The notes: generated by a model from the sequence alone, not told the origin. Positions 1,366-48,900 are shown, numbered from the whole stretch's first letter. The stretch is 60,268 nucleotides of DNA, filler included, from Hausera hauseri (GCA_046269625.1; 10 parts of 10 records of this genome joined end to end with filler, not necessarily neighbours in it); one strand, 5' to 3'. Numbers and translations are program-made.

Positions 1366-4300
1366 TTATCTCAAACGCCAATGTCCGTACGTCAAACTCT
1401 TATTTCGCCCCACCCACTTTCGCTTGTCATCGTTGCATAATAAAGCAACCTTTTTATTTGTGATGATATACAGCTGGTGCTTAATCGATCCTATGGTAGT
1501 TTGAGACAACAGCCTTTTGTCCGTCTCCGTCTTCTTCTTGTCCATAATAGACACGGCAATAATCACCGTGATTTATTTCCGTCTGTTTCAGCTGGATACC
1601 TTTTACGCGCATTTTCGGCCCACAATCCGTTAGCAGACTGTAGCACTTTGGGCGTAGGAATATCCATTCCCTGTACTGAACCCAGCCTTTACTTTTGTCC
1701 TTGAAGCAGCCGATTTTGTTTGTTATCGCGCTGCTGTACAGTGGATGGTCCGGTAAGTAGTTGGACGTATCCAGTAGTCCATCTGATAACATTCGTCGGA
1801 GCAGTTAACCTCGATTTATGTTTTTCAGCTCAAGGAAGAAGCTGTCTGTGTCATCTGCAACGATACTAATCTCACGGTCGTCGAACATTTGCCGGTAACG
1901 TGCCAAGTCGCGATATTGGAGCTTGTACATTCGCAACTTGTTCAGGTCCAAAACAATTTGTCCGATGTAGCTTGGCTGGTCCAGAACGACTTCTTCCCGG
2001 TTTAGAAGCACGGCGACCAATTTATCGGCAATGTGCATTGACCGCCTGAACTGAGCCTTGCTGGTGTACGTAGCCAGTCGTTTTTGTTGTTGCACAGGAG
2101 CACTTGAGCCGCTTCTTCATATTTTCCACTGTTTTCCCTAGAGTGAATTGTTTTTGAGCTTGTAGTAGTCATTTTCGAACTTTGTACAAGCTGCAGCTCG
2201 CTTCCCGGAATTTCCATCAATGTACGCCTTGAATATCGGCGCCTGATTGAAGCGGATTGCACGATGCATCTGTGTAACGCATACACCGAGCTGCATATAA
2301 AACTGCAGCAGACGCCAATGAACCACGTAATTCGATTTGGGTTCATGTGTCATGAGCAGTTTCTTTACTTTTGAGCCACCGGGTAAACATTATCTAATTG
2401 GTGCGACCGGCAGTTCATCCAGAAAATCATGCAGCTCATCCGGTACCACGAGATCAACCTCCATTAGGTAGCCGACTGAGCTGCCTTTTGTCGTGTTTGC
2501 TGCTGGCAGACTGTCCAGCAATGTATCCAGTTCTTGTTTGTCCATTATGCATTCAAGTAAACCGTACGGCGAGGTTTGCGAAAGCTCCCAGCCGTACAGG
2601 TATTTAATATCGATGTAGAACATTGACGTTGTATCATCATCGTCATCATTGGTTACGTGATGCTTGTTGACAAATGTCATGCCGCCACGAATGCCAACGT
2701 CAAAAAGTCGTACATTTCCGGGTCTTGTACCAGCTCAATGTTCCGATCCAGTGACATTAGTGCCGATGCCCAACTCATTCCCGGTATTGAGTAAAAGTTG
2801 AGCGGTTCTAACCTATCTTCCTCCAACGCTTTAGACCGAAATGTCTAAAACACATCGGCTAATAGGTACACATCGAGCTTTAGATAGTAAAGCATGTAGT
2901 TCAACATGTTTTTACAACCGAGCTATGTCTAAGATTCCTGTGCTCACTGATATTCATCTTCTGTGACACCTATCCATCGCGGCGGTAATTCTTCTGTTGT
3001 CCGGAGTCGCTCATATGACACGGCAAAGTCATACGGGAATACGCCTTTTCTGCGTGAAATATGTGTGGGGAACTGCATCAGTGTTAGCGGCACATCGGAC
3101 AAGGCATTTAGGAGCTTTGCTAGAAACTCATTGAGGAAGGTACTTCTGAGGTACTTCTTCATCGTTGTTGGGATTATGGATAGCTCCCAGTGCGGAAATC
3201 CGTTTATGGCCCATTTCAGAATATGGTGACAGTCATAACTCCTAAAGTTATGAAATATCACCGGCAAAAATGGTCGCACCCGTCTTGCCAAATTGCATGC
3301 GTTGCATGCTGCTCCCACGTATCGACCGTTAAGTGATCGTGATCCGGTACGAGCCATTCAGGTAATATTTTGTGGTGGCACAGGTAACATTCATCGGTGG
3401 CTGCAAACATCAGGCTTTCATCTTCATCTGTCCAAATCAGGGGTTTTGTGCTGTTACTGTGATACCACGGTGCGATTTCCGTTTCTACTATCGTTTCCAA
3501 ACGCTGCAGGAAATCACGCACACAGGTCCAGCCGTGAAAGGTGTAATACTGCGGCTGACCGACCGCTTTTATTGGGACAATCAACATACCAACGGCGGTT
3601 GGAACGTGTTTTTGATCATACACGTTGTGCCGTGATAGAATTGGCTCAATATCGGCATGTACCACATATGCCGGACTGTCTGTTTTTGACCAATCTGTGA
3701 ATCTGAGTTCCTTTTTGACGGGCATGACATACATTGTGGTTCCCGATGAATTTTGTCTGCACAGAGTCACATGTTTCTCTAGTGATGTTTCCGACCTGAA
3801 TCCATGCAGACATACAGGACACCATTTACATTGTATACGCTTTTGGACAAACTGATGGTGATCCATGTTAAGTAGTCTGTCCAAGTTGGTTACTGCCACT
3901 TAGTGAAATCTATCTGCTTGCTCCAGTAGCAACAAATTTACTACTGAGTAACCATTTGGGTTCCGACTTCGATAGAGTATATCTACATGAGGGTTTTTTG
4001 TAAATTTTTTCATCCGCCTGTATTTCTACGACTGTGTTGTACCGGAGCACGTTGATTGTCAGTGTTGGATTACGCTGTTTAAAAGCCGGAATGGATTTCA
4101 CTTTCATCGGCATCCAGTTTTCATCGAAATCCAATTCGGAAAAATATTTCTGATACTGTTTTGGACTAGATGCACTATGTCTGTCCACTTCGTCGTATTT
4201 CAATACTTCCAGAATACTGTAAAGAAAACATTATTCATCGTTGGTATTTTTTACATTCACTACCGCCAGAGATTGCTTCAGAGCTGCAGGTGTCGGTATA

Positions 4301-4900
4301 AATGATCGTCCAGACAGATATATCATATCACTCGACTTTGTTACGATAAAGCCGAGAGTGACAATTCGTATAATTCGCCATTCACTACCCTTTTCCGTGT
4401 AGTTGGCGATTTTCTCATTGAGCTTTTCGCCTACGTCGGAAATAAAATCTTCAGAGTACGGTACGGCTCGATGTGACAGGTACCATTGTTTCCTGTCACC
4501 TTACAAATTTTCAAATTCTGCAAGTGCATAATATTGCACTTTGCAGTGGTGTTGTTAATTTTTGGCCACCTCTATTTCCAACCGGTTACGCACATGAGTG
4601 GGTACATCCTTCGATTGCGTTGCTGTTTTTCTCCGTCATGTGCACCTTCATGTCCACGTACGACCTGTTCAGGTCGTACTTGACTGTAATGTTGGAAATA
4701 TTGGCCTCCAGTTCTTCTTGTTGATGCTGTTCCTCCTGCTGCTGCTGCTGCTGTTGCTGGGTACTGTTTTTGATTAAGTCGTCAAGACTCGTTGAGGCCT
4801 AACGTTTCCAACTGGTTGTTGTTGTTGTTGAGGGGATGATGCTGCTGCTGCTGCCGCTGTTGTTGTCCATAAATATTTGTTTCTTGGACCGCCTAAACTG
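1366..4900 (-). pseudogene. Polinton/Maverick (adintovirus-type) protein-primed family B DNA polymerase, multiply frameshifted
   Basis: Collinear fragments on the minus strand: GSEW..SFIPTP..AVVNVKNTNDECFLYSIL; C2H2 finger CPVCLHGF..LEKHVTLC; ExoI YVVHADIE; endonuclease VII-like CYLC..DHDHLT..GAACNACN; FHNFRSYD; RKGVFPYD; RGG..MFYIDIKYLYG (motif A); YKLKNNSL (motif B); DDTDSF (motif C); LDTSNY; LRPKCYS; KGI; C-terminal DDKR..YGHW. Confidence 0.92.
4720..4866 (-). repeat. CAG/CAA microsatellites (poly-Gln) at the 5' end of the PolB pseudogene
   Basis: Runs of tgc/tgt triplets on the + strand; minus strand reads QQQQQQQEEQHQQEE. Confidence 0.75.
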
Positions 4901-11229: not shown

Positions 11230-12378
11230 GCCCATCCTACACCATACTGCCCTGTTTGTACATATGAAATCAAATATTGTATTCATCATAATGCATACCC
11301 ATCCGATGCCGATCAATCATTACTAGATGCTCAGACCCTTGACGTCATCGAGCCTACGGATCATACTACCTATTACTACACCTGGAATGTATCCACCCCT
11401 TTTTCTATCCCAAATTTCCAATTGCATATGTGTTGTCTATGTCAAAAACCTAACAGAATATCCTATCAATTTAGCTGTTGTAATGCCGAGTATTGTGCTC
11501 ATTGTTACCAACTAGAATCCCATCATCGATATTTAATCTGCAGTATATGTAACTTTTGCCCTCAATTTATTTATGCATATTTCCACCATCCTAGAAGAGC
11601 CCTCCTTACCATCACCAACACACCAATTCCACAGATACTTCCGACAAGATACTTCCGACTAGAACAACAGGCATCAGTTAGAATAGAATTCCCAATTCAC
11701 AAATTTGACCCCTCCATAATAACCAGACTACCACCGATTGTTCTTCAAACACCCTTACCTCACATTAATGTCATGACCCTATTACGACAACCATCTTCAA
11801 TACCACACCCACGCTATCATCCCGAACAAATTACTAGACCATTACCTGAATTACCAGTATCTGTACCTACAATAATACCCACACCAACTATTTCCTATAG
11901 TCCACCATTACCACTATCTCTACGAGAAGATTGGTTCCCTGTATTCAACAAATGTCCAATAGACCTTATTTCTGATCTAGCCCCTCCTGATCTATGGGCA
12001 ATATTGCAATCACACTACTACGACCAGTTTCCCACCTACGAATGCACTATATGTCTAACCGAAAGAATAACAGTGGTTCAATTTCAATGTAACCACCAAT
12101 TGTGTGCAACTTGTTTCAATAAACTTCGATCCCAATCTCTCAAATCAATTGACCCCGAAGATTCTCTTCAAATGACTTTTCAGAACGGTATCTCGTGTCC
12201 ATACTGCAGACAACCATCAGTATACTATCATTTCTCCTATACCTATGACAACAGAACCCAACGATTATGCCATTGGATGAATCCGATAAACGATGCGACA
12301 ATGACAATCAGACCCAGAAATCTCAGCTTCGTCGATGTTTGTACCCAGAGTGATCCGGAGGACCGAATCCTTCCTTAA
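11230..12378 (+). CDS. Multi-RING-finger protein (5'-truncated), terminal ORF of an LTR element
   Basis: Frame open from contig start: CPVC (end of a possible first RING), CCLC..SCC..YCAHC..CSIC, Pro-rich linker, C3HC4 RING CTIC..CNHQLCATC..CPYCR; stop overlaps a PPT. Confidence 0.8.
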   Translation, partial: AHPTPYCPVCTYEIKYCIHHNAYPSDADQSLLDAQTLDVIEPTDHTTYYYTWNVSTPFSIPNFQLHMCCLCQKPNRISYQFSCCNAEYCAHCYQLESHHRYLICSICNFCPQFIYAYFHHPRRALLTITNTPIPQILPTRYFRLEQQASVRIEFPIHKFDPSIITRLPPIVLQTPLPHINVMTLLRQPSSIPHPRYHPEQITRPLPELPVSVPTIIPTPTISYSPPLPLSLREDWFPVFNKCPIDLISDLAPPDLWAILQSHYYDQFPTYECTICLTERITVVQFQCNHQLCATCFNKLRSQSLKSIDPEDSLQMTFQNGISCPYCRQPSVYYHFSYTYDNRTQRLCHWMNPINDATMTIRPRNLSFVDVCTQSDPEDRILP

Positions 12379-20699: not shown

Positions 20700-21246
20700 A
20701 ATGCTACATGAGTCTGAAAGTACATTTCCTCCATTCCCACAAGGATTTTCCCCAAAACCTTGGATATTTCAGTAAGGAGCAAGGAGAAAGCTTTCAGGAG
20801 GACATCACGGAAATGGAGCATAGATATCAGGGGTACGGCAATGTCAGAATGATGGAAGACAACTGCTGAAATATAAAACGAGATTATATTGTTAGCATGA
20901 AAGGACGCAAATCCATAAACGTACATTTTCACGTGAATAAGTGAATCTTTTGAACAATGCATCAATTTCAGTTCTTTTATTATTCTAGATATATGATGAA
21001 GTGATAGTTAATAATTTTAACTTGTTCTTTGTTGTGTTACAAAAACAAATTAATTACAGCTTGGCCTATTCAGGCACTTGATTGTTGTAACTTAATTTTA
21101 ATAAAACTTGAATGTTTAATATGATTCTGCAAAAAAACTTACGTGATACAGAAAAATGTTTGCCATATTTAGAATCAGCACACAAAAATAATATAGTCAC
21201 ATGAAAATTCAAAACATCAGACACAAAATGAAAATTTGCAGCAGTG
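20700..21246 (+). mobile_element. 3' end of a Chapaev-like (CMC superfamily) DNA transposon
   Basis: MSLKVHFLHSHKDFPQNLGYFSKEQGESFQEDITEMEHRYQG matches the MSLKxHFLHSHLDFFPxNLGxVSDEQGERFHQDI transposase C-terminus; candidate terminus ..GCAGCAGTG at about 21246. Confidence 0.6.
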
Positions 21247-21555
21247 TTTTTTCTACATACAGCTCACGAAAGTCGAAATTCAAATACTGAATATCAGTCA
21301 CGAAAATTGTCTTTATGATCAGGTCATATAAGGGTCGTGTTGGATGTTAATAACATTAAGCAACATGAGTAGAAAATGCAGATCATGGCATTTTCTTAGA
21401 ACCACAGTTTTAAAAAATTCCTTTAATCCTGTGCTGTGGAAGGATTGAAGTACAAATTGAGCAGAATTGTTACGTAGCCATAATATGTTATATCTTCTTC
21501 AAATACCGGATGTAAAGTTGACTGCATTTGTTTTAAATTTCATTGAATGTCCTAT

Positions 21556-23629
21556 TTACCTACTTTCAGAAATCATTGAATTTATTTGATTATATTCTAT
21601 ATCATCATTATCAGGTATACTATACGAGGATTCTTTCATGTCTTTTCTTTGTAGAATTTTCCTTTTCCATAGTGCATCGTGGTTTGCTAAAAAACAACTT
21701 GCTACTGCCGGTATTACAGCTATTAGGACTTTCCATGAGCATCCTACTGCTGCATGTATTCCATATATCTTACCTAGTGCCATAAATACTGTCTTTATGG
21801 TGCTAATAATAAAATATAAAGCCAAAAAACCGGAAGCTGCTTAACCGAAATATAAGAACTTTTCAGACATCTTCTCCATAACGTTTTTGTTACCTTCTTT
21901 AAATAGTCTTTACCCATTAGATTTTCCCATTGTGGTGATCTTTCGCCATCCCACATTACTCTCCTGGTTAATTCTGTTATAACTCTTTGTCTCTGTTCGG
22001 GGAATAATAGCATGCGCCGACAATCTTCTAGATTTTGTTGGGTATAAATTCCTCCCTAAGATATTTCTGCTAACTGTTCAAATTTTTGATTCTTTGCAAA
22101 TTAATTAAACTTAATGTCTCTGGCTTCGGCACTGGCTCTCTTTTTAGCATTCGGATCCATTTGCCATTATCGATTTTAAACATCGGCGACATATTGAAGG
22201 TACAATTATATAGTGGAGTAGGTTTCACGTTAATATCCAATAGTATTCGGGTTACTGGCATCACGTGTCTCGCTTCTGTGTGGTAAACTACTGGTAATTC
22301 CAGTGTACATTCATCCGTTAGTGTAATTGATACCTCTACTTTTTTGCATTCTATTGTTATCAGAACCTCACCCATCACTCGTCCGATAATACCGTCACCG
22401 AAAGGCATTACTGGCGCTACCATATCTGGGTTTGTTATTACTAATGCCATTTTATTACGCATTATTTCGTAATTCAACTTGCATTCGTTCATTACTATTT
22501 CTCGATACAAACCTCTAATTTCCTTCCTTACATAATTAATTAGAAAATCGATCTTATTATCGAAATATTGTGCTAACTTGATATTTTTCTTATTTATTTT
22601 AGTTTTCGCCCCGGGTATTTCTTTTCTCGATAAGAAAATACCCTCATAGTTAGTTTTGATATTTATTCGCTACACTTATTTGCTACTCCCGTGATTTTGA
22701 ATCGCATCATTTCTTCTGGATTTTCCGAATATACAATTGTAGATATCTCCATCATTTTGACTTCTTTTGTTCCTTCTTTATATGTTGCTGTTTCTTTTTT
22801 CGCCGTTTTTCCTACTGCTTTGTTAAACTTTTCTTCCTTTAACAGTGTCAACTGGCATTTACTTGAAGAAGTTTCTCATGTCATTTTTGATTTTCCAGTA
22901 TCACATTCGCCATTATCATATTCGCACTCACTCATCGTCGTCATCAATTTTGTTTGTGAGTCGAATAATCCTTCATATTCTTTCAACTGGATCTGGTAAT
23001 CTTCTATGGCCACTGTTCTAGGCGCGATGGTACCTCCAACGTCATAATCTACTCCCTTACAGGTGCTTCCGTTGTTTTATTTATTAATCCTGCCCTGAAA
23101 ATCCTAGTATATTTTATCCTATGTCGTACTGCAGGTATATGCGCGCTTTGTATAGTTATGATGCCAATCTTAAAAACGTCCTGGCATTCTGCTGGTGATA
23201 TTATTATTGGTTTGAAAGGTGTTGTTGGCTCGATTATGGCCGAATTTCTCGAATAATAAGCACAATTAAACAGGAAAAATGATCCTTTTACGTAACATTC
23301 CCTGATTTTTGCTTTATAAACTCAGATTCTTGGTATACCCAGTATGTAAGCCCACCTGTAGTTGTTAACTGTTCTAGATCGGCCTCTGGACATTTCTTCA
23401 AATCTACTAGGGAGTATTTCTGTCCTTTGCTAGGTTTAGAGCAATCGTAAGCTACTATACCTACAGATTTCGGCATCAATAGCGACGTTATTAGGAGAAT
23501 TTGAAGAATTTCCATCATTGACATACCTGTCATGCCTAGTCTAGAAACGTTTGGTTGCATTGCAGTATGTGTATTTACTAATCTTTCTCGTTCTCCTGAC
23601 CTCATTATATTAGTCATTGGGCTGTTCAA
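21556..23629 (-). pseudogene. Env: chuvirus-type / herpesvirus gB-like (class III) fusion glycoprotein, full length but disrupted
   Basis: Signal peptide then IVAYDCS..YSLVDLKKC; LYREIVMNECKLNYEIMRNKMAL..PD..GRVMGEVLITIECKKVEV..ECTLELPV..PVTRIL..PMFKIDNGKW; GIYTQQNLE..MLLFPEQR; C-terminal hydrophobic ASGFLALYFIISTIK..GCSWKVLIAV. Confidence 0.85.
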
Positions 23630-23746
23630 CCATCCACCTCTACATTGAGCCCAGCTTCCTAGTGTATCCTTTAAAATCTTTAAGGATGTCTTTATATTTC
23701 GTTCGATCTCTTCTAGATTTTGAGTCTGATGATTAATTACTATTAT

Positions 23747-24970
23747 TTAATAGAGCAGGTAAAATATAGCCGTTTGAGCTTTCTCTCGTGTGATCCCTGT
23801 TGCGAATATCTTCTCCAAAATATCTAGCTCAGGCAGTTCGTTTATTCGTTCTTTGTCTAAATTCTCATAGAATTGTCGATTTATTCGCAGCATGCTATTA
23901 CGTAACGTGTTGAATAGTTCGTCGGGAATTATTGTCTGCATGTCAAATGAGGCAAATGACGTATGCCGCCTAGCCAATAAAGTTCTTAGTAATGGATCAA
24001 TATCCACCGATTCGGGTGTGCCATTTGTTCCTGCTAGTAACAAACGTCTTGCTATTTCTTCATTTCTATCTTTCCTATTGCGTATATCACTTATTTTTGT
24101 TCCTCTCGGCCTACCTCTTCTCTTGGTCTCTGTCTGAACTGTGATGTCTTGTGTATCACCCATGGGGTACTCTACTTTCTGCGGTTCCATTTCCCTTAGG
24201 ATATTCTCCACTGTTGTCTGTGCTCTTGCCTCTGGATGTATTTTGGTTATCGTTATTGGATTGTAGTTCTCACTTCTACATCATATTCTCAGTAACTTAT
24301 CGTAATTATATAGTGTTCTTCCATAATAATTTAATCCATAAGGACTATCTTGATAAAAAGTCTCAAACTCCTCAATCTTTTCTCTTAAAGTTTGTACATC
24401 ATCTATTTCGTTCATCCTGATGACCCTCATATCCTGGTTTCCTTCTTTTACCGTTATTCGTATAGCTTCATTCCTGCCTTTCTCATCTTCTGCGGCTTTG
24501 GCCAATACTGTCCTGGCTATTTTTTTGACAGGACTGGCATCTTGGGCTAATAATACCAACTCAGGTAAGATTTTTTTCATTCTTTCTACCGTTACATTAC
24601 TAGTGATTATCTTCAATATCGTGGTAGTCGCTTTATCCACATCGATTATATTACCAGGATCTACAGCCAATACTGCCTGAATGATATCCTCCTCCTCGTC
24701 TAAGTCTACCCCTGGGTTCCTTATTATTTGGTCTAATATAGTTTATCAATATTGGTGTAGCTTGAGGTTCATCTTCGTCCAGTGAGGGTTTACTAAGGTT
24801 ACTCTTCGTTCTTCCTTTTTCTTTTCTTTCACTACCTCTTCCCTCTCTGTTGACGTCTCTCTTGATCCAACCTTTGCGTCAATTATTTTCTTATTACCTT
24901 TCTTCCTTCCTTTATGAGATGCTCTTTTTTCTGGTTGATCTCCTATCATGTATGTATTACTCTCTTTCAA
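23747..24970 (-). pseudogene. Unknown charged/coiled-coil region between gag and env, with an AT-hook-like motif
   Basis: Same-strand ORF fragments 24746-24970, 24281-24670 and 23747-24211; KRRGRPRG motif. Confidence 0.5.
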
Positions 24971-25189
24971 TTTTTGCTGTTGTCTTTTATACTCTTAGTT
25001 CTATTTCCAATTGTTTTTTATGTGTTGAGGTAGTCTGTCATTTATATAATTGACACTTTATTTCTTTTTATCGTTTTTCTTAACTTCTGGTTCGCTATCC
25101 TCCGTTTCATATTCTCTATCCGATGATTCGTCTGACATAGCTGATGTGTGATCCTTCTTTTATTTATTTTTATTACTTGCTTTTGAGGG

Positions 25190-26030
25190 GTCTCCTCTAC
25201 GTGATCTACATGATTTCGCTATATGTTCATATATATATTACAATTAAAACATTTCAATCTTCCTTCGGAATTTATTTTAGGTAATGCCCTTCCATCCTTT
25301 TTGGACCTCTTCTTATAACTCATTTTCTCTCCATCGTTTCGTAGATTAAATCTCACTTTCTTTTCTGTATCTTATTCAGCTTCCGTGGCTGACGTTTGTG
25401 ACGGACTTCTACTTTTTTCATAACGTTGATACTTTTAAGAACTATTATTTCTTCTTCTGTCGTATCCAATGTTATTATAATTAGACTTGTTCCATGTATA
25501 CAGTTCTGTATCTGGTTCGGCCTTTCGCGCCTTTCTTATTGCTTCCTGAAAAGTAGGTGGGTCTGATTGTGAGATTATCGTCCTTAATCTTTCGTCCAAT
25601 CCGTATTGAAATTGAGCTAGGAGCGCATTATTTCTTGTAGTAACGTCTGGATATGCTCTTGGTGCGAGTTTTTTCAATGCACAGACAAATTCTTGGATGT
25701 TTCATCTTTACGTTGCCTCCTTCTTATAAACTCTTCAATTCTCCCCTTTCCAGAGGGATCTATTAAAAACTTTTCAGGCAGTTTTTCTTTAATTCCCTTC
25801 TAGTCCTTCTTGTCTTCATCGGGCATTTGAAAATAAATCATAAGGGCCGTCCCATTTAAATTTATGGGTAATTTTTCCATTCTTTGCTTATCGTCCCAGC
25901 CAAAACTTTTGGAATAGACTTCATATTCTTTCATAAAATCCTGTATATCTTCTTTGCCCGAAAACTCTTTCATCGGTAGGGTGAAATCAGCCTTCGACTG
26001 AATCACCTGCTCTACGTTATGATTCGCCAT
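25190..26030 (-). pseudogene. Ty3/gypsy gag (capsid + CCHC zinc knuckle), disrupted
   Basis: FSGKEDIQDFMKEYE..GWDDKQR..LPINLNGTA; LKKLAPRAYP..QFQYGLDERLR..PPTFQEAIRKA; knuckle KCFNCNIYEHIAKSCR at about 25200-25260. Confidence 0.85.
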
Positions 26031-26157
26031 GGGTTCGTCCTCACTTAAATTTCTTAGATATTCTAGTCCGAAAGGCTAGTCTTTTTGTGGTTGGTAAACT
26101 GTTCCTCTTCTTGTGGTAATGGTGATACATTTTTAATCCAAAGGTCTTCAATCAATG

Positions 26158-26176
26158 ATCCCGGGTCACGGCACCA
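26158..26176 (-). promoter_or_regulatory. Primer-binding site complementary to tRNA-His, just after a 5' LTR end
   Basis: Minus strand ..TTGAACA aac TGGTGCCGTGACCCGGGAT, about 130 nt before the gag ATG. Confidence 0.85.
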
Positions 26177-26960
26177 GTTTGTTCAATCCTCACTAATTAG
26201 ACCAAAAATGATTAATTTCGTAATTTTGCCAATTAATTGGAAAACAATTTTTAGTTATTGTATTTCAAGATTGGGATATCGTGAGCTCTTACCTAGGTGA
26301 TAGTAGGTAATGTGTTACAAGCCAGTAATTTATTTTGTTTCTTACTCACCTAGGGTTTAATATCTTATTTATTTATTTAAATTTAGTTGGGCGGTCGTCA
26401 GGTAGCTTTAACCTGGTCGACCAAAATTCCAAATTTAAACACGCTTAATTACTTATTTATTTTTACTGATTCAAATGAAATATAACTCCAAGAGTAAGGT
26501 GACCAATATAATTAAACCAATTATGAGAATTTATGATACAAATCAAATTACGAGAATACACACTTACGTGAAGTCATTAAAAATATCGTTGTCAGAAAAC
26601 TCAATGTATCAATGTTCAATTCTTTCAGTTCTTGTCACCAATTATATATCCTTTATAGTCAAATTTTATTACAAAATTCACCATGGTCACAAGATAAAAT
26701 AAGACAATCATTAACAGTAATGTCGATGTATGAAACATAAATCGTGAACGATATATACACAATGAGAATAATGTAATTTTACAAATACCAAAAACGACAA
26801 CAAAAGCGGTATAATTACTAATTCAGTTAAACGTCATTGTTTCATACATAATTAATTTGACGACAACAATGTTTCATACATAATTAATTCGCTATTGTTT
26901 TGCTATTGTTTCGCAGTTCACAGATTTGACCGAGTTTGGAAGAAAATTGACCCAAATTTA

Positions 26961-27723
26961 TTAATCTTTCGGGAGGGGCATGTGGATGAATTTGTCGGTC
27001 GTTCTGGATTTGTATCCGATAGATTCAGGTTTGAACACTTTATTATCCACAATAATGGTTTCATCCACCTGGAGATGTCTTTTTCTGCCACACTGAGATG
27101 TAGTTGGTGCTGTTCGCACCCCTTCGGAAGCCGCACTTTTAATTATTAATTCATCAGTCCATTTCACTTGTTTGTACAACGATTGGTAGTACTGCACTAG
27201 GGCAGTACTACGAAGAAGAAACCCTTTTGTATCGTAGAATTTTCTGGCTAACTCTTTGAAAGTGCCCGTCACTAGCTGATACTGGCGAACAATTTCCTCA
27301 TGATAAAGAATGTCGCGGATTCCGGCCAGCCGCCGGATTGGGCATTTGAAATGATTTACTACCATTTCAATGACGTCGGCTACGATTACAATCTTGTCCG
27401 TCAATAATTCAGCAACCTTGCAATAGAAGTCCGGTTAGGTACGTTATGTGCGTATCAAAGTTGTTGATACGCTGTTTTTGGGTGATTATGCCATATAGTA
27501 TCGTGTCCCCGTGCAAAGTCATAATTGATGCCTCGATGGGTTTGAGTTGATTCCATTGGTCATAAGCCAAGTTTACGGCCGCTATGACCATATCACTATT
27601 TGTTATTTTATCGATTCTTCGGAACGGAATACTTTTATATTTAACGTAGTCCGGTTCTGGACGATTGAAGCATTTTCCTTTGGGCAGGCTTGGGCGAAAT
27701 TTCTCTTGCTTTATTATTTCCAT
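26961..27723 (-). pseudogene. Pseudo-DEDDh exonuclease-like cargo domain (split by a frameshift near 27405)
   Basis: IAAVNLAYDQWNQLKPIEASI..ILYGIITQKQRINNFDTHITYLT and KIVIVAD..PIRRLAGIRDIL..TFKELARKF align to the same domain in the 711-aa ORF. Confidence 0.65.
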
Positions 27724-27833
27724 TGCAAAGATAATTCGGTTAGTGTTGGAGCGGATTGTGAATGTGTTTGCGTTAAGAAATGTATGGTCGAAAGAGAGAC
27801 CATGTTCTACGTCCAGGCTGATGAGATCTCCTT

Positions 27834-28247
27834 TTACGGATGTTTTTTATCGGAGGTTTTAACTTGCAGTTGGCCAGTAACACAATAGAGATTCATGGAG
27901 TGAAAACGTTCATGTAGAATCAGTATGTCGGAAAGATAGAAGGAAATAGCCTTTGAAATTTGCATAAGGGCAATCGAACGATTAGCCATACTGTAGCTCT
28001 TTAAGTTATTTGGGATCTGTTGTGTTTGTGGATAATTAAGACTGATTGTAGTATCGTTGTGGCTTCTATAATATTGATTGGAGGGATTTGCGTTTATCAC
28101 GTGATTCTTTGCATTGTTATACCAATGCTTTGATCGGTTAATCGTCTGGATTTGGTGGAACGTTGATGAAGATACTATAAAAAACAAAGTCAATATGATT
28201 CCATACACGGTATTTAGACTCAACACAACGGTTACCATACACATCAC
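27834..28247 (-). CDS. Hydrophobic-leader ORF of unknown function inside the cargo region
   Basis: N-terminal hydrophobic stretch MVTVVLSLNTVYGIILTLFFIVSSS; same strand as the flanking cargo. Confidence 0.35.
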   Translation of the reverse strand: MMCMVTVVLSLNTVYGIILTLFFIVSSSTFHQIQTINRSKHWYNNAKNHVINANPSNQYYRSHNDTTISLNYPQTQQIPNNLKSYSMANRSIALMQISKAISFYLSDILILHERFHSMNLYCVTGQLQVKTSDKKHP

Positions 28248-28360
28248 TACGGTAATCGTTATGGTTAACGTGGGGTGAACTTTTAGACTAAAGAAAACCA
28301 GTGTTATTTGCTTATCTCAGTACTTAGGGTTGCGTTGATCGCAATCCCAATATCTAATTG

Positions 28361-30070
28361 TCAGCTGGGATTGTCTGTATCTAACGGATTCGTTAGATCA
28401 CGCATGTTAATTATAACCCAGCTTTGTCTGCTCCGTTTACATAGCGAGAGCGAGACTTTAATTACTATTATCAATATTACTATCAGCACTATGGGAACTA
28501 ATGATCCGATTAGTATCATCTCTAAATGAGAATGTTTATATGCGGCTCGGGAGGGTTTGCTAGTTACTTTGTTACTACTTGTATTGTTCTTATAATTCGT
28601 TTCACTCTTACGACTCTTCTTTGTAATTGCCGATATTACCTTGGTGGAAGTTATTTTATCGCTATCGTCCAATAATTGTAGAACCACCGTATATCTTGTG
28701 TCAGGGTTTAAAGCTGGGCATGGTGCTATCAAATAATCCGGTGTTATAACTTCCTTTACTACTATTGTATCTTGTTTCTTACAAGTAAATCTAATTTTTA
28801 TAAAATCTAACTCCGGTCTAACGGATATGATTAAAGCAGTCGGAGCTGCTATAAGGGTTACGTTTTCTCATATAGAGCGCTTTTGACGATAATAAGACGT
28901 GTAAGGTCTGACCATAATAGTCATTTCGTTTTTATCGGTCCAGAATTGCACCGCTGGTGTCGTAATCTTTTTCTGTATGTCATCGTATTCCTTTTGATTG
29001 TTAAATCGTATAAACATTGTTGGTCCTATTCGCTCTATTGGGTACTCAAATTTACCGTTCCTTCTCCGAAATAAACGATAATAAACGTGATATATCTTTC
29101 CCGGTGTAACCATACAGCAAACTCGTCGTTGAATACCTTTTAGTCTGCAGACTAAAATTTCTGAATTTATTGTTCCTAATAGTTTTATTGTCATTCGTCG
29201 ATTTTCTTTTAGTTGTATCATCGTTATTATCTCTATGCAACTTCGTCCACTTTTAAATCCCATTGATCTAGCTATCATCTGGTTAAATATTTTTTCATCT
29301 AGTTGAGTTTTGTTCATCTGTTGCCTAGTAGGAATCACTATTAATCTATAAAATTTTGTTTTCCGGCTTTTGTAATAATCTCCTTGTCTCTTTATAAGTT
29401 TAAGATATATATAATGGACACCTGAACCTTGTACCCTGCACTGTGTTTGGTTGGTATCTGGGTGAAATAAGCAGTTATATTGTCGCTCGCTGGGGTCTGT
29501 TTGATTATCATTACACGGTATTATTTGTATCCCCATTATATATATTGGGGGCATTCGTTCTGGTATACTCCAGTTTATCACTTTTTGACCTTTTTCTGAG
29601 TATGTAAATCTGTACTGTAGGTTCTTCATTAATGGGTCTTCTGTTATGGCTATTGCGTGCCGTATTTTTGCTCTTTCAATCTCTTTATTCGTCATTTGTC
29701 TAATCACTTCAGGAAATAACAAGAAGACACTTAATAATAGGTACCGCATTAACCAATGAGATCTATGAGTTGGGTTTACCTTGGCTGCTTTTTCATTAAC
29801 ACTTAGTACTATTTCCTTTTCACCTTTTCTTAACTCGCTTTGTTTGGGAGCCGGCTTGCATCTATTGACGTGAACCTTCACAGATGTATTAGTTTTCATC
29901 AAGCAAACATTCGGTAAATCCACTTTCTCCACTTCATACGGCCCTTTGTAGTGCCTGTCCAACTTGGACGTTTTACCCTTTTTAATTGCAGGTGAGTATA
30001 GCATCACTTGGTCGCCTGCCTTAATTTTTGGTTGTCTGGTTTTCTTATCGTAATACTTTTTATATTTTTT
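28361..30070 (-). pseudogene. Gypsy integrase C-terminus fused in frame to signal peptide - FN3-like ectodomain - TM (one in-frame TGA at 28868-28870)
   Basis: KKYYDKKTRQPKIKAGDQVMLY..SKLDRHYKGPYEV..VHVNRCKP, then WLMRYLLLSVFLLFP, CCMVTPGKIYHVY, CPALNPDTRYTVVL, TM MILIGSLVPIVLIVILIIVI. Confidence 0.8.
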
Positions 30071-30159
30071 ATTAAATTATACATAAATGCCTTTTAGAGG
30101 ACAATAATGTTGCTGGATTCGAACGTTCTAATATTTCGATCTTACTAAGATCTTCATCA

Positions 30160-36442: not shown

Positions 36443-37012
36443 AAAATTGGGGGTTCCAAAATAAGAATAAAAATAAAAGATATGCACACATTGATTACAG
36501 AATAAAAGTGAAAGTGTACGAAGATAATGCAGAGAAGAGAGTAAGAATATATACAATCATGTTATTCGAATATCAAGTTAATTCAAAATCAATCGATTGC
36601 TATCGCATTGGAAGTTCTATGATTCAATGATCCAGATCAACATTTTCATAGGATATTCTGGTATTGATGAAGTCTTCTTTACCTGGTTTGTCTCCTATAT
36701 TTGATCGTTCTATAGGAATCAAAGTCGGCTGGGTGTTTTTCATCAATAACAAATATTTGAGATGACCATTGAAAAAGGTTTCGGTTAGTGATTGGATTGT
36801 CGCAGTCACAATCAATTTGGTTCTTAACTTGGTGTTGAACTTGACTCCGAAATTAACGGGTAATTTCAACACTGTCAAAACCGTTAGATGCGGTACCATA
36901 AAATACTGATTATCTGTATTTTGATAAATTGCTCCAATAGGTGTGTTCCTTTATGTGTTCCATTTGGCAAGTTTTTTTGCCGAAATGGTTTGTCCCATGT
37001 AGTATGGTGCGT

Positions 37013-38100
37013 TCAATGTTCTAAACAATAGTCATTCCTTAGTTGCTTTCGATGACGTGGACAAACAAGTAGATGATATACGCAATATAGGGAACGGCTC
37101 CACTTTTTGCAAACGTGACATCTTCGTGCTCGGTTGTGAACAACATTACCAACGGGAAAAATTACATCTTTCACTGGTACAACACATCCCATTTTGGCAG
37201 CAATTTTCTTTAGATCCTGAGATATTGTGCAACGTGGATGGGCCAATCTTTTTTCAATGTAGGACTTTGACAATTGAAAGGTCAACTGAAACAAAAACTG
37301 CTTTCTGTCACCAGAATAATCTCGCTTTCGCATTATTAAGAAAACATTGTAACACGAAACATCTAGAATATTGTAGTGAACAAGCATAGGACATCGCACA
37401 GTTTTTCTACGACATGTAAGGGTTTCTAAACAATCATCCAAACGATCAGCATCACTTTTGGTTCGGTTATCCCTCCTGTTTGTATTTAATGTCCGAAGCA
37501 ATGGTAAATGTTTCTTGAGAAGCTCTGTGACTAATGTATGCGATGTAAAATAACGATAGTTACAATTTCTTTCCCCAATCCATGATACGGTTCTGTCAAT
37601 TGCATTACAATATTAGTGCCTAAGTTTTTGTGCGGTTCCAAACGATTTCCTGCAGAGTGAATAAAAATTTGAAAGCATAACCGGATGAAGATTCACAAAT
37701 CCAAAAAATTTTCAGCCCAAATTGTCTTGGTTTGCGTGGAATGTAAGTTCTTCCTGCTATTCGTCCACTGTAGCCAAGTAACTGTTCATTTACGGTTAGA
37801 GAAAAATCAGGAACATAAAATCTTCTAAGGTTTCCATCGAACAAGGATATCACGTCCCTTACAGCTGAAAGTTTGTCATGTGTCTTTCTTTCTTCTCGGG
37901 TTCTTATGTTATCAAATCTCAAGGTTCTGAGGAAAAATTTAAAGCAGTTTTGTGACATGCATATTCTGTAAAAGGGACGTGCACTGAGAGAATCCCACAA
38001 CAAACTCAAATCATTGAAGTTATCTCTATCAAGTCCTACAGACAACATGATTGCAATACCAGTAATGTATTCATCATAAGAAAATTCACAATAAATATGC
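37013..38100 (-). pseudogene. piggyBac transposase, disrupted
   Basis: MSQNCFKFFLRTLRFD..DKLSAVR..LTVNEQL..YIPRKPRQFGLKIFWICESSSGY; YFTS; DRLDD..TCRRKTVRCPMLVHYNILDVSCYN; C-terminal Cys-rich RRCHVC..VCPRH. Confidence 0.9.
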
Positions 38101-38155
38101 TTATAGTAGTGTAAAAACGTCTGTTCTTTCCCCCCCGGGGGTCGCGAGAGGAATC

Positions 38156-43964: not shown

Positions 43965-44850
43965 CGAAGGAATTCAGGGCCGAGTCTTAGGAGAAGTGCT
44001 ATATACATACAAATGTAAACGATTAGACTTACCCCTGATTACTGGTACTCCTTGCTACTCTGAGATACCTGTTAAGTATAATGAAGAAATCCGATACGTT
44101 CAACCGATTATCCGAGTAATTCTGACACCACATACAATACCCACGAAAATTCAAAATTGTTCAGCACTAAATGAACCATTTATTAAGTACGACAATCAGG
44201 ACCTTTGGGTTAGATTACCGGACCGTGAAAGAGTTAAAGAAACACCTAAGAAATTGACGATGGCAAATTTGAAACATGCAATTGAAACCAATATGTTTAC
44301 GGACGTGTCCAAATCCGCATTATACAGCAAAAAAGAAATTGATTCATTCGTGAAGTTTCTAGCATATCCTCGACAGAGAGAGCAAATAGTAAATCGCGGA
44401 ATATACCGGGTAATCGACGACACAGCCGGAGAAAGAAAATGGGACCGGTTATGGACACCTGACGCCTATATTAAAATCGTTTCAAATCTGTGGTATAAAA
44501 TGTGGGGCGGATTCCTGAAATTCGGCCAAGTAGCTTCTGGGTTTCTGGCCATATACTTTATCGTACAAACTTTGAAAGCCTGTATCAATTCCATATTAAA
44601 TGCCTATGAGATTTACAACTTAACGGGACTATCTCTAAGTATAATAGGTGCTCTATTTTGCCCACTTGGTAAAATCATTAAAGCTTACTATGAAAAACAA
44701 TGGCGAGGTAAACTAGAAAAACATGTTGATTATAAATCGAAAAAGCCTTTCCAAGGGATACCCCGTCAAGTTCCGATAACGACAACGCCCCTGGATATTA
44801 TCCTACCACAGGGATTACAAAGGATACAAAAAGAAAATTCAGGTTTATGA
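43965..44850 (+). CDS. Env: C-terminal half of a chuvirus-type / gB-like fusion glycoprotein (5'-truncated)
   Basis: GRVLGEVLYTYKC..CYSEIPVKYN..QPIIRVIL..ALYSKKEID..LAYPRQRE..KMWGGFLKFGQVASGFLAIYFIVQTLK; paralogous to 21556-22510. Confidence 0.85.
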
Positions 44851-45379
44851 AACCAAAATGGAAAAATAGACCTAAATCACTTGTTGCGCCATATGAGAAT
44901 TAAACAGTGCCAATTTGCAGATTACCAATATTAATAGACCTAAAGGATCCATATGGAAAAATGGAGGAGTATATAAAATTACTTAATTTACCAAAATACT
45001 CCCAGGAAGAGATACGTCAGTTCGTTATCACGCGAAACATGGAAAACAATTGTGTAATATTACCTACATCACCTAAATTAGGCATACCGCCTCTTATACC
45101 TTATCACAAAACAACTCGATTATTGAAAAATCAAGTAGATAGAGAACCCCATTTAACGACCTCAGAATCCGTTAGTAAGCAAAACATAACATTACCACGT
45201 GGAAGTTGCTACCCAGACTTGACTGAACTCAAAGAGGAAGAGAAAGGAGTGGAAAACAATGCTCAATCTTTAGAAAGTTTAGCGGTTATATTATCAACCG
45301 ACACTATCCGATATTGTTCAGATAGTTACAGCTTGATGGAACCACATATAGGTAATCATAACGATGTATTAACGTTTCT

Positions 45380-48300
45380 CGAGTTGTTACGGGATAATCG
45401 ACCTCACACCATAGTTTACTTTGATAGCTTTGAACTGAATTCTATGGTTGACACTGGAGCTAACGTTGCATTAATAGCAAAACATGCAATTCCAAAAGAA
45501 TTACAATCTCAAATAAAATTGGCTACTAAAGGCTCGCCTGGCACTACTTTGGCTTTTTAGCAATGCAGTAAACCTTATGGATACTGGAAAAGTGAACCAT
45601 ATATTTTTGGACAGAGAGTCAAGAAAACCTTTGATGTAATGCTTACCTAGGATCCGCGATGCATTTTGTGTATGAATGTGTTGCGAAAATTGGAAGGAGT
45701 ACACATAAACTTACAATCGGGATCAATTTGTCCAAATAATGAAGATATACCCCCTAATTATGCCAGAACAGATATCTGGGTAGGACATGTTGAGAAAATA
45801 CCACCCAATTCTAGAATGGTTATACATGCCAGAACGATATTCTCAGACAACAGCGTAATTGAATTTGTGCCGAAAACTCTTCAAAATGGGCTTATATTAC
45901 CACATTACTGCGTTAAAGTACTCGGTGGTACCATTCCCCTAGAAGTTCTAAATCCCACTCCAAGACGTGTCACGATATTCCCTAAAACGAAAATTTGACA
46001 AGCACTGGAAACTACACGCCAAGAAAAATACAACAATAAAGTTGTGACCATTTCAACAGCGGAACATAATAATGTTGAAGCCACACTTAATGTCGTTCTT
46101 ACTAAAGTCAAGAAAATTTTATCAAATGAATATCTAAGGAATTTCTCAGACCTCATTTGTCAGTACCTTGATATTTTTGCAAAAAACGAAACGGATATCG
46201 AACGAACAGATTTGGTCAAATTTAGATTGCCATTTATGCTCGACCCCACAACCGGAAAAGAGGTAGATCTGTTACAACAATCCATACCAAAATTGTACCT
46301 TCCTCCAAAAGCACTCCAAAAGGAAGTTGAGGAACAAATTCAGGCAATGCTCAAAAAACGTATCATAGAACCAAGTCAATCACCATGGCCCTCTCATAGT
46401 TATGGCCAAGAAAGCTAATACAAATAAACATCGCCTGTGCGTAAATTACGTCACCTTAAACAAGCACTTAATGAATCATGCTTACCCAATTCCGTGAATA
46501 CGAGACATCATTGATGAACTAAAGGATTGTAAATATTTTACCACATTGGACTTACAAAGTGGGTTTTGGCAAATTCCCGTAGCTGAATAGGATCGGTGGA
46601 AAACCGCATTGAAAACCCATACAGGGATCTACCAGTTCACACGCATGCCATTTGGCTTAAATGCGGCACCCACTTTCTTCCAACAGTTCATTCGTCTAGT
46701 ACTAAAAGGAGTGCGAGGGTTATCGTACATTGACGACATCCTCATTGCGTCCAAAACATGGTCTGCCCATTTAACAAAATTGAAGGAAGTATTCGACTGA
46801 ATCAGACTTGCTAAATTGAAATTAAACCCAAAAAATGTGAATGGTGTAAGAAGGAGGTTAGATACCTGGGAATTGTCGTTTCCAGTAAAGAGATATATAC
46901 CAGCCCTGAGTTAGTAACTAAAATACTGGAATACCCCCTCCAACCAATGTGCATGAAATGAAAGCATGGTTAGAATTGGTAGGATTTTATGCCGCCTTCA
47001 TCCCTGACTGCAGAAATAAATCAGCCTCAATATAGGTTATTACGGAAAGACCAAAAATGAGAATAGACCGAAGAGAACCAGAACATTTCGATGAAATTAA
47101 AAAACGAATGGTGTCATCACCAATATTGAGGTACCCAGATTTTTCATTACCATTCATTCTAAAAACCGACACTAGCATTAAAGCTATTAGTTTTATATTA
47201 GCTCAACAAAATCCAGAAGAAATAACTCAGTATGTAATCGCCTACGGCGGACGTAGCTTGAATAATGCAGAGCAGAAATATTCAACTACTATTAGCTATC
47301 CGTGACGAATTGCGACATTACGAATATTATATCTACCGTCATAAGATTATAATATTTACTGACCATAAGGCACTATTATCTTTACGCTCAGACAACAGAC
47401 ACGTATCAAGTCGACTCCAAAGATGGAAGTTGGAACTTTTGAATTATGATCTCGAGTATCGATATCGTCCTGGCAAAGAAAACATGGACTCCGATGCTCT
47501 GTCAAGAATGCCATACGAAAGAATAGTAGCCGCAGCTTATAAATCAACCGATAACGAAAGTGATAAACATCTGAATGAGAGAATCATTAATGATGTTACA
47601 AGAACAACGCCAAATCCAAATACGAAATATCGAGACCTTACAAAACCAAGATCCCTTTATTGTTCAAATCAAACAATTAATCAATGGGCAATTAGTTGAC
47701 TCGGCATCAAATCACATTCAAAAATTTTATGAAAAGAACCGAGTGAATTTAGAAATCGAAAATGGCATTTTACGACTGAGAGTCGGAGAACGAAAACTGG
47801 CCATGGTGCCGGCACCGGCCATCAAAGCCGTCATGCTACAAGAACATGATTCACACTTAGCTGGACATCCGTCTTTAAATAAGACTTTAAAGCGTATAAC
47901 CGCTAAATATTATTGGCCTCAAATAAATAAACATATTGAAGGATGGGTACGTTCATGCAAAATGTACGCTACAAGAAAAGATAGAGGATTTCGTATCAAA
48001 CCGTTTTAGGAAGCTTACCTGAAGCTCGTAAGCCAATGGAATTGTGCGCAATGGACATCTATGGGCCCTTCCCAACTTCGGACTCAGGATACAAATACAT
48101 ACTGTCGCTTGTTGACTACTTCGCTCGTTACGTTGTACTAGTACCATTGAAAAACATGACTAGTAGTACACTTGCTGAAGCCTTTTTCTATAAAATTATT
48201 GCCGTACTGGGCACCCCGAAACAGTTGTTGACTGATCGTGCACCTTACTTCATTAGCGAGCTCTTTGAAAAACTATCAAAAATATTCCAATGAAAACATT

Positions 48301-48900
48301 TATTAACGACATCATACCAATCTCAATGTAATGGTATGATCGAAAGGATGAATCGTACCATTCAGGGTATTCTTTCTACAAAGGTAGCACAGGACCAAAA
48401 AGATTGGCTCAATCATCTGATAACTACGGCTTTCGCAATCAATACTACACCTACCAAAAGTACAATCATTCCCCTTTTGAGTTAATGTTCGGACGAGCGC
48501 CTTTGATGACATTGGATACTGAATTACTGCCATCTTCCTTGTTAAATAGTGATCATATGGATGAACAGTACCAGAATTTGCTTAAACGTCTTGAATAGTT
48601 TCAACGCGAAGCAAAGGAGTTTGAAGAGAACTACAGATCCGGATATAAAAAGCAATTTAACAAAAAATCACGACCACATACTTATAAAATTGGAAATTAC
48701 ATAATGGTCCATTACCCCGCGGCGAAGAAAGGCAAATAGTTAAAATTAACACACACAGGCCAAGGACCGTACAAAGTTGTCGATGTGCGCCCACAAACAC
48801 TTTTTATTCAGAAAGGGCCCGACAAATACGAGGCTGTATCTGTTCAACGAGTAACCCGAGCACCTACTCCATACAACGATTTCATACACGAAACAGATCT
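45380..48900 (+). pseudogene. Ty3/gypsy pol (PR-RT-RNaseH-INT), disrupted
   Basis: MVDTGA; IIEPSQSPW; LDLQSGFWQI; RMPFGL..YIDDILI; YPDFSLPFILKTD..AEQKYS..TDHKAL; HDSHLAGH..YYWP; MDIYGP..VDYF..LLTDR..NGMIERMNRT; GPYKVV. Confidence 0.93.

Follow-up and report, generated by a model that had tools for sequence, protein, structure and literature searches.

A decayed, 3'-truncated retroelement copy, very probably Burro-like, with Env in frame behind Gag

How an envelope gene comes to follow gag directly, and what has become of pol, are the questions raised by a retroelement in the stretch of DNA analysed here (60,268 nt, hereafter the window). The window consists of 10 contigs with N spacers between them; the element occupies part of contig 5 (20700-30159), in minus-strand orientation. 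We conclude that it is very probably a decayed, 3'-truncated copy of a Burro/GYPSM1-like Ty3/Gypsy element, a gB-type errantivirus with the order GAG-ENV-POL, lying in an invertebrate genome rich in repeats, the likeness to Burro being to its published description.

Layout of the contig 5 element

Read on the minus strand, the element has the order PBS(His)-gag-CCHC-helical-UBL-basic motif-Bcl-2-like-signal-Env-TM (Table 1). It comprises about 860 codons from the start of gag to the env ectodomain, with some 1.7 kb of coding sequence between the decayed gag and Env, and frame reading places everything from the knuckle to Env in a single reading frame. The same series, gag-CCHC-UBL-Bcl-2-env, lies in one intact ORF of 1130 aa in the relative P0002, which is colinear with the contig 5 element at 37-50% identity. 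The contig 5 copy itself is probably dead.

Table 1 Features of the contig 5 element and of related stretches, in window coordinates
Feature	Position	Strand	Basis
Env-protease linker start and break point	21556..21615	-	P0011 alignment; depth change
Class III (gB-like, Monjiviricetes-type) fusion glycoprotein and TM	21616..23458	-	PF24664; tblastn
Internal Env signal sequence, in frame with the Bcl-2-like domain	23459..23518	-	hydrophobic, P0001 549-567; PF24664 profile position 1
Bcl-2-like domain (BH1-, BH2-like segments), one in-frame stop	23609..23941	-	Pfam, profile and fold searches
AT-hook-like basic motif KRRGRPRG	24101..24124	-	read from sequence; aligns with the same motif in P0002
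Ubiquitin-like domain, one in-frame stop	24242..24463	-	profile, Pfam, Foldseek
Small helical domain	24476..24703	-	kept in P0002, P0017, P0033
Single CCHC zinc knuckle, split over two frames	25208..25251 (approx.)	-	six-frame reading
Gag capsid domain (Ty3/Arc-like), one stop and one frame change	25504..26030	-	P0002 and Ty3_capsid matches
Primer-binding site, tRNA-His(GUG)	26161..26176	-	single match in window; His_GUG 12-mer
Putative LTR, 3' end	26180..26400	-	PBS-adjacent; ends in CA at 26181-26180
Upstream Gypsy unit, 3' part: integrase C-terminal tail in frame into signal-sequence-to-TM protein	28361..30159	-	tail matches
Contig 8: env C-half, protease, RT, RNase H, integrase; decayed	43966..48814	+	Pfam

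The primer-binding site, TGGTGCCGTGACCCGG (26176-26161), is confirmed, in line with the tRNA-His priming proposed in the initial annotation. The window contains a single occurrence of its first 12 nt, where chance would give 0.08 with up to one mismatch allowed, and this 12-mer is identical to the tRNA-His(GUG) entry in the table of supplementary file 1 of PMC13524379. A window-wide search found no tRNA genes. Of the LTR and PBS carried by gB-type errantiviruses, the PBS is thus present, whereas the LTR end that had been claimed has as its one support the CA dinucleotide adjoining the PBS, which begins 3 nt further on. No second LTR copy exists anywhere in contig 5, and a repeat comparison of 26178-28400 with 20700-21700 gave nothing beyond chance length (best E 0.27). 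Summed contig depth drops upstream of ~26390.

A gag with a zinc knuckle, as first annotated, is confirmed. The capsid is about 50% identical to P0002 aa 19-182 and matches Ty3_capsid in Pfam (E 0.0026); the capsid part of P0002 matches the Drosophila Arc2 capsid (E 0.007), and its zf-CCHC lies at 197-212 (E 0.00025). The N-terminal Gag with CCHC that characterizes Burro is therefore found in the contig 5 element, with one knuckle.

Env matches PF24664 with E 7e-29 for one frame (Pfam), and P0002, P0004, P0154 and P0011 are colinear with it at 27-49% identity (tblastn). The mononegavirus-fusion-type Env of Burro, in frame after gag, is found here, with PF24664 intact in P0002; so is the ectodomain between signal and TM after gag that marks gB-type errantiviruses. 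The glycoprotein had been called complete. It does span the full length from the signal sequence at 23518 through the TM segment at ~21860-21780, but it is broken by five frame changes (near 23315, 23070, 22660, 22085 and 21890) and at least three in-frame stops. Its closest relatives are retroelement polyproteins. In the Env tree the window rows fall in an unresolved 10-row clade; by eye, the cysteine layout and motifs are those of six Schmidtea rows of group C1a (supplementary file 2 of PMC13524379).

The region between Gag and Env

The initial annotation left about 1.5 kb between gag and env as coding sequence of unknown kind. A coding stretch is indeed present, and it is identifiable: it is the in-frame run-on of Gag into Env, with helical, ubiquitin-like, AT-hook-like and Bcl-2-like parts. 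That gag, middle region and env share one frame, and that the middle holds UBL and Bcl-2-like domains, had been missed. Compared with the undamaged middle of P0002, this stretch shows 37% identity. A 401-residue model was poor (pLDDT 48).

For the helical domain, the model has four predicted helices (pLDDT ~50), and a fold search (VIA) returned only generic HEAT/TND-like matches, with Z up to 9.4. In relatives it always occurs together with the ubiquitin-like domain. The latter matches the UBL of ubiquilin-3 with the A1 profile (E 2.3e-5) and Pfam ubiquitin with E 0.031 on P0002 and E 0.0046 on P0017; Foldseek returned UBL/SUMO rows (best E 0.029), and ESM Atlas gave ubiquitin-like leads, all below 0.9. 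The basic motif that follows is AT-hook-like.

The Bcl-2-like domain matches Bcl-xL with the A1 profile (E 2.9e-4). Its Pfam Bcl-2 match (E 0.0036) is below the curated cut-off, and such sub-cut-off scores were obtained in 5 proteins or regions. The Bcl-2 family makes up all 34 rows listed by Foldseek (best E 0.035) and 22 of 50 VIA rows (Z up to 6.5); Cre and Ndc10 tie at the top of the VIA rows (Z 6.8 and 6.6). The model is middling (pLDDT 62), and ESM Atlas gave no usable match for this part. The matches to the Bcl-2 fold point the same way but are weak. In the alignment the BH2-like segment is retained and the NWGR motif of BH1 is not, which makes BH3 binding uncertain. Taken together, the Ubi2/SUMO-like and then BCL2-like parts that precede Env in Burro are both found here by profile, in that order, and the fold searches agree weakly. 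Among publications on Bcl-2 in retrotransposons, judged by titles and abstract starts, PMC6431247 alone was relevant.

Of 155 proteins searched with local profiles, 11 carry the helical-plus-UBL part and 9 carry the Bcl-2-like one; the profiles had been built from 4 and 8, respectively, of these same proteins. The UBL/Bcl-2 module is mosaic among relatives, and some complete polyproteins carry UBL without Bcl-2. P0002 ends in env. P0154 and P0155 have gag-CCHC-UBL-env-PR-RT-RH-IN in one ORF, without Bcl-2; P0004 has Bcl-2-like-env-protease in one ORF that begins at Bcl-2 and ends after two proteases; P0017 is gag-UBL-Bcl-2 and ends without env or pol. None of the fetched proteins combines gag, UBL, Bcl-2, env and RT. 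A search for related loci with P0002 in viral and metagenome contigs gave no confirmed relatives, and a second, word-based homolog search gave nothing beyond P0002 itself.

The missing pol and the neighbouring units

No pol family was found between gag and env by Pfam in any minus-strand frame of contig 5, and tblastx of contig 5 against the remaining contigs, among them contigs 7 and 8 with their pol, gave nothing better than E 0.35. As first described, env thus follows gag without an intervening pol; the decayed pol named at the time as the counter-case was looked for in this interval and not found.

In relatives, pol follows env. A Pfam scan of 28 proteins, 24 of them chosen for length or high score from a list of 150 and 4 taken from elsewhere, found PF24664 in 24. 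A protease lies after env in the same ORF in 15 of these 24, and the remaining 9 end inside env or at most 35 aa past its last match. Burro's PR-RT-RH-IN after Env is absent from the contig 5 copy, at least its protease being present in those 15 relatives; the Gypsy-type pol of errantiviruses occurs in relatives and in contig 8. The contig 5 copy ends before the protease, inside the env-protease linker: the P0011 alignment reaches 21559 at aa 1035, and the P0011 protease begins at aa 1083. Around this point, a low-depth contig spans 21134-21569 without any difference, and depth climbs on entering the element. Depth here is summed contig depth from one sequencing run, which may be the source of the window, and not a copy number.

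Contig 8 carries the matching env-to-pol half, which agrees with the earlier remark that the two loci fit in order. It is colinear with P0154 and P0155 aa 1216-3031, and its env-pol junction has a frame change, one of many in contig 8. The contig 5 element had been taken for a second, divergent copy of the contig 8 one, a relation we rule out: the two env sequences are 38% identical over 104 residues, and blastn finds no match between the contigs. Contig 8 is a different family with the same layout.

The Gypsy unit upstream on contig 5 apparently belongs to the same env-bearing group. Matches to its integrase tail comprise five proteins from env-bearing elements (E 4e-15 to 1e-10) and one protein that has no env match (E 1e-4). 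The ORF that follows has a TM segment near 28500 and no Pfam or PDB matches. An in-frame signal-to-TM extension after integrase is also found in P0007, P0011, P0023, P0152 and contig 8.

Could the interval nevertheless be what is left of pol? Pol usually occupies the position between gag and env, which is where the interval sits, and the element might be an ordinary gag-pol-env one with its pol deleted or decayed. Neither Pfam nor tblastx detects a pol domain, however, and the interval is instead similar to the undamaged middle of P0002, with matches to UBL and Bcl-2; this reading is refuted. No better are the chances that gag and the glycoprotein are unrelated neighbours, namely an endogenised mononegavirus or chuvirus glycoprotein beside a gag fragment. 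PF24664 is named after RNA viruses, but one frame links knuckle, middle region and env, the nearest env relatives are retroelement polyproteins, and the same fusion is intact and colinear in P0002. That gag and a viral glycoprotein lie together by chance is refuted by P0002, P0154 and P0155.

The initial annotation had left the choice between a truncated copy and a non-autonomous gag-env element. We regard it as improbable that pol was lost family-wide and that a gag-UBL-Bcl-2-env element is moved in trans. P0017 and contig 5, where no pol follows env, would suit such an element, as would the high depth across the whole gag-env span (3,500-24,700 per bin, lower in the parts of contig 5 upstream; not a copy number). 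Yet neither a polypurine tract with a matching 3' LTR nor any LTR-like repeat closes the gag-env part, depth collapses at the end of env into a low-depth flank from ~21570, which fits a break in a single copy, and most of the env-bearing relatives scanned continue into protease. Because it ends before the protease and without a 3' LTR, the contig 5 copy is truncated, not non-autonomous. A further arrangement, possible if on balance doubtful, would add to the truncated Burro-like copy and not replace it: two units of a single family, arranged head to tail with an LTR in common, and with 28361-30159 as the family's own 3' part. Both units lie on the same strand, the PBS comes directly after, the integrase tail best matches env-bearing relatives, and these have the same kind of extension after integrase. 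Against this, no polypurine tract was found preceding the putative LTR, depth over gag-env is about ten times that over 27020-29860 (390-1,860 in the latter), a low-depth contig spans 26676-27074, and a nested insertion, with one element placed in the 3' part of a second, fits equally well.

A possible mechanism and comparison with known systems

We propose that the truncated copy derives from a family making one polyprotein, with tRNA-His priming reverse transcription. The internal signal sequence would thread Env into the ER, where signal peptidase would free the ectodomain; the TM segment would bring the chain back to the cytosol, and the element's protease would release PR, RT-RH and IN. 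The Gag-UBL-Bcl-2 part would stay tethered to the membrane through the signal anchor, placing the Bcl-2-like domain beside an anchor, much as tail-anchored Bcl-2 proteins are placed. The domain would most likely serve to delay the death of the particle-making cell. A retrotransposon-borne Bcl-2-like protein is a candidate for transposon interference with host cell death, and the short domain of an intact relative offers a simpler experimental subject than the ~4,900-residue Burro polyprotein. Speculatively, and with the odds against it, compact Burro-like elements might be enveloped invertebrate retroviruses with a flavivirus- or pestivirus-like polyprotein, in which one segment serves both as Env signal and as anchor of a working, death-blocking viral Bcl-2, and a receptor-like membrane protein follows integrase in frame; they might form a tRNA-His lineage that may reach hosts beyond planarians. 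The proviral idea for Burro-type elements is already in the available part of PMC6431247; neither the shared anchor nor a membrane protein after integrase is described in the available parts of PMC6431247 or PMC13524379.

According to the available part of PMC6431247, Burro-1 to -4, or GYPSM1, are giant Gypsy elements found in planarians (Schmidtea mediterranea and Dugesia). As described there, the polyprotein (4,873 aa in all for Burro1) has Gag with two or three knuckles, Ubi2/SUMO-like and BCL2, an in-frame Env of mononegavirus type, and PR and RT after that; the internal region reaches 25 kb, with MATH, Smc, AIR1, BIR and ankyrin motifs, and in Dugesia MATH has moved out of the polyprotein. 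The contig 5 element shares the order Gag(CCHC)-Ubi2/SUMO-like-BCL2-like-Env in frame, then, in its relatives, PR-RT-RH-IN. It differs in being probably more compact, with a single knuckle and a Gag that starts ~130 nt past the PBS without an upstream accessory ORF, and in being decayed and truncated. Pfam found no MATH, Smc, AIR1, BIR or ankyrin match in its 5' half, the 3' half being missing. For these reasons, and since MATH is relocated in Dugesia, we call it Burro-like and do not assign it to Burro-1 to -4.

The novelty implied by the gene order is not supported. GAG-ENV-POL errantiviruses are catalogued in Platyhelminthes, Nematoda and Bryozoa in the available part of PMC13524379, and the contig 5 element resembles the gB-type ones in its order gag-env, with pol next in its relatives, in its gB-type Env and in its internal signal and TM. 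Env in frame between gag and pol is already published for Burro/GYPSM1, as is the in-frame UBL-BCL2-Env, so that the order matters little as a discovery. The available text of PMC13524379 does not discuss a gag-env fusion, UBL or Bcl-2 domains ('fused' and 'single ORF' do not occur in it). In its table, 8 of 9 flatworm elements have no tRNA and 1 has 'others', and the 17 rows of His_GUG elements are annelid, mollusc, thecostracan and hymenopteran. The contig 5 element adds a compact example of the Burro-like kind with a clear tRNA-His primer site.

Mosquito BEL/Pao elements likewise join a retrotransposon to a chuvirus-derived glycoprotein (PMC7642597, in the part available); the relatives of the contig 5 element, unlike these, are Gypsy, with PR-RT-RH-IN after env. 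With viral and cellular Bcl-2 proteins (Bcl-xL, KsBcl-2, ASFV A179L, EBV BHRF1), the contig 5 domain appears to share the helical fold, and it has the BH2-like W-x5-GGW and a hydrophobic anchor thereafter. Unlike them, it lies inside a retroelement polyprotein, its BH1 NWGR is replaced, and it stands ~40 residues before an anchor that doubles as the Env signal.

Gag, env and the region between them

The window, ten contigs separated by N spacers, comes from an AT-rich, repeat-rich eukaryote, with decayed Gypsy pol genes in contigs 7 and 8 (Pfam). Contig 5 (20700-30159) carries the copy on its minus strand: from 26400 down to 20700, a CA dinucleotide, a primer-binding site (PBS), gag, a zinc knuckle, a long frame and a glycoprotein follow one another in that order. 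The PBS has a 12-nt core with a single occurrence in the window, against 0.08 expected; this core is identical to the tRNA-His(GUG) entry in the available part of a published table (PMC13524379), and the PBS proposed in the initial annotation is confirmed. No pol domain was found between gag and env with Pfam or tblastx, neither decayed nor left over from a deletion, and the claimed succession of gag and env holds.

Features of the contig 5 copy and of other elements in the window
Feature	Position	Strand	Basis or remark
CA dinucleotide, contig 5 copy	26181-26180	-	reading of the sequence
Primer site, 16 nt	26176-26161	-	tRNA-His(GUG) match
gag, contig 5 copy	from 26030	-	reading of the sequence
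Zinc knuckle, contig 5 copy	about 25251-25208	-	split, two frames
Signal-to-TM long ORF, contig 5	28361-29800	-	in frame after integrase tail
Signal-to-TM long ORF, contig 8	48960-49475	+	in frame after integrase tail
Signal-to-TM long ORF, contig 4	16235-20298	-	two TM segments, C-terminal ankyrin repeats
Repeated remnant past the break point	20700-21000	+	depth about 70; presumably resembles a DNA-transposon protein in its C-terminal part
Decayed gene	1370-4450	-	read from translation; we take it to resemble a protein-primed family B DNA polymerase, Polinton type
Decayed gene, cysteine-rich C-terminus	37000-38155	-	translation; presumably a piggyBac-like transposase
Proline-rich ORF	11230-12378	+	RING finger (Pfam), further cysteine clusters; possible accessory gene of a mobile element
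Decayed Gypsy element of a different kind, contig 7	39780-42830	-	RT, RNase H, integrase (Pfam); no env match found
Open frame, 722 aa	52933-55098	-	no Pfam match found
Open frame, 1662 aa	55199-60184	-	no Pfam match found; higher GC, low complexity

The glycoprotein matches PF24664 (Monjiviricetes_fusion) in Pfam and spans signal to TM segment, as annotated; it is not intact, since five frame changes and at least three stops interrupt it. With stops read as X, a single frame runs from about 25150 through the signal sequence at 23518 into its start. Gag (about 50% identity), the middle region (37%) and env (42-49%) are colinear with P0002, a 1130-aa ORF from the homolog search, and therefore form one gene.

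The middle region is coding, as first described, but no longer anonymous. Pfam gives weak ubiquitin and Bcl-2 matches in it, under the curated cut-offs; weak Bcl-2 matches recur in the homologs P0005, P0060 and P0095, and the ubiquitin match in P0017. A profile of seven aligned sequences finds, along the protein, the ubiquitin-like domain (UBL) of ubiquilin-3 (E 2.3e-5), then Bcl-xL (E 2.9e-4). The structure model of the Bcl-2-like part has a pLDDT of 62. Foldseek returned the Bcl-2 family in all 34 rows listed (best E 0.035), and VIA in 22 of 50 (Z up to 6.5), with Cre and Ndc10 tied at the top. In the alignment a BH2-like segment is retained and the NWGR motif of BH1 is not kept. A four-helix domain, tied to no known family by the fold search, precedes the UBL. 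The UBL and Bcl-2 tests, individually weak, agree with one another.

Truncation at the end of env

The copy had been described as either truncated or a non-autonomous gag-env element. It is truncated: its alignment to P0011, an env-pol polyprotein of the gag-env-pol group, ends at 21559, 48 residues before the P0011 protease. Summed contig depth in the one run containing the stretch (possibly its source), which is not a copy number, is 3,500-24,700 over 21648-26387 against about 70 at 20700-21331, a step that fits a repeated element broken at the end of env. A low-depth contig covers 21134-21569 with no differences. The sequence before the PBS is not repeated after env, and no LTR-like repeat was found in contig 5; the copy is not a closed gag-env element. 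NCBI labels P0011 a Flavobacteriaceae MAG protein, most likely through eukaryotic contamination of that assembly.

Relatives show what follows env. Among 150 proteins listed by a representative search, 24 that were long or scored highly were scanned with Pfam, together with four from other searches. PF24664 was matched in 24 of these 28. A protease follows env in the same ORF in 15 of the 24, and the other nine stop within env or at most 35 residues past its last match. The env-to-protease distance is 17-430 residues (13 relatives). P0004 reads Bcl-2-like-env-protease; P0154 and P0155 read gag-CCHC-UBL-env-PR-RT-RH-IN (protease, RT, RNase H, integrase), without Bcl-2. All parts together occur in no single scanned relative; the full chain is pieced together from relatives that overlap and from the literature. 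Several relatives (P0006, P0007, P0027, P0152) have at least two aspartic proteases after env, one apparently downstream of integrase in P0007 and P0152.

Contig 8, which had been taken to fit the same order, carries env and, after it, protease, RT, RNase H and integrase (Pfam). The plan is indeed shared, but it is not a second copy: with no DNA similarity found to contig 5, and 38% env identity over 104 residues, it represents a different family.

Upstream of the copy, 30159-28361 (-) encodes an integrase C-terminal tail, best matched by env-bearing relatives, that continues in frame as a signal-to-TM protein. Similar extensions are present in P0007, P0011, P0023, P0152 and contig 8. This unit is either a tandem one sharing an LTR with the gag-env copy or an older element into which the copy inserted; no polypurine tract was found between the two, and their depths differ about tenfold. 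Short decayed ORF-like pieces (26961-28316, -) separate the upstream membrane ORF from the putative LTR; Pfam gave nothing better than E 0.05 for them. The contig 4 ORF is possibly an accessory tail belonging to a related giant element, ankyrin repeats being reported for Burro.

Proposed polyprotein topology and known elements

From the observed domain order and frame, we infer processing steps by topology. Gag to pol would be made as one polyprotein. The internal signal would carry Env into the ER, where signal peptidase would cut; the TM segment would bring the chain back to the cytosol, and the element's protease would release Pol and Gag. The N-terminal part, held by the signal segment as an anchor, would place the Bcl-2-like domain at the membrane. 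Its likeliest role would be to delay apoptosis in the producing cell. Flavivirus and pestivirus polyproteins have a comparable topology.

The available text of PMC6431247 describes Burro/GYPSM1, giant planarian Gypsy elements, as having a CCHC-knuckle Gag followed by a Ubi2/SUMO-like motif, BCL2 and then Env. That Env matches mononegavirus fusion proteins and lies in frame between gag and pol, an arrangement described there as a first. Burro fragments undergoing decay are also noted there for Dugesia japonica. The available part of PMC13524379 places gB-type errantiviruses of GAG-ENV-POL order in Nematoda, Bryozoa and Platyhelminthes, with as many as 215 intact copies for some of them. BURRO1 is expressed upon loss of SMEDWI-2 (PMC8532177, in part), and in the available portion of PMC13238120 Burro appears as a citation only.

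The gag-env layout of contig 5 is real, was correctly described, and is already explained by this known plan: what remains is the 5' half, no longer functional, of a Burro-like gag-env-pol element. The label fits by plan, rather than by tree placement with named Burro elements. Compared with Burro, the contig 5 element shares the plan but looks more compact, with one knuckle and a tRNA-His site.
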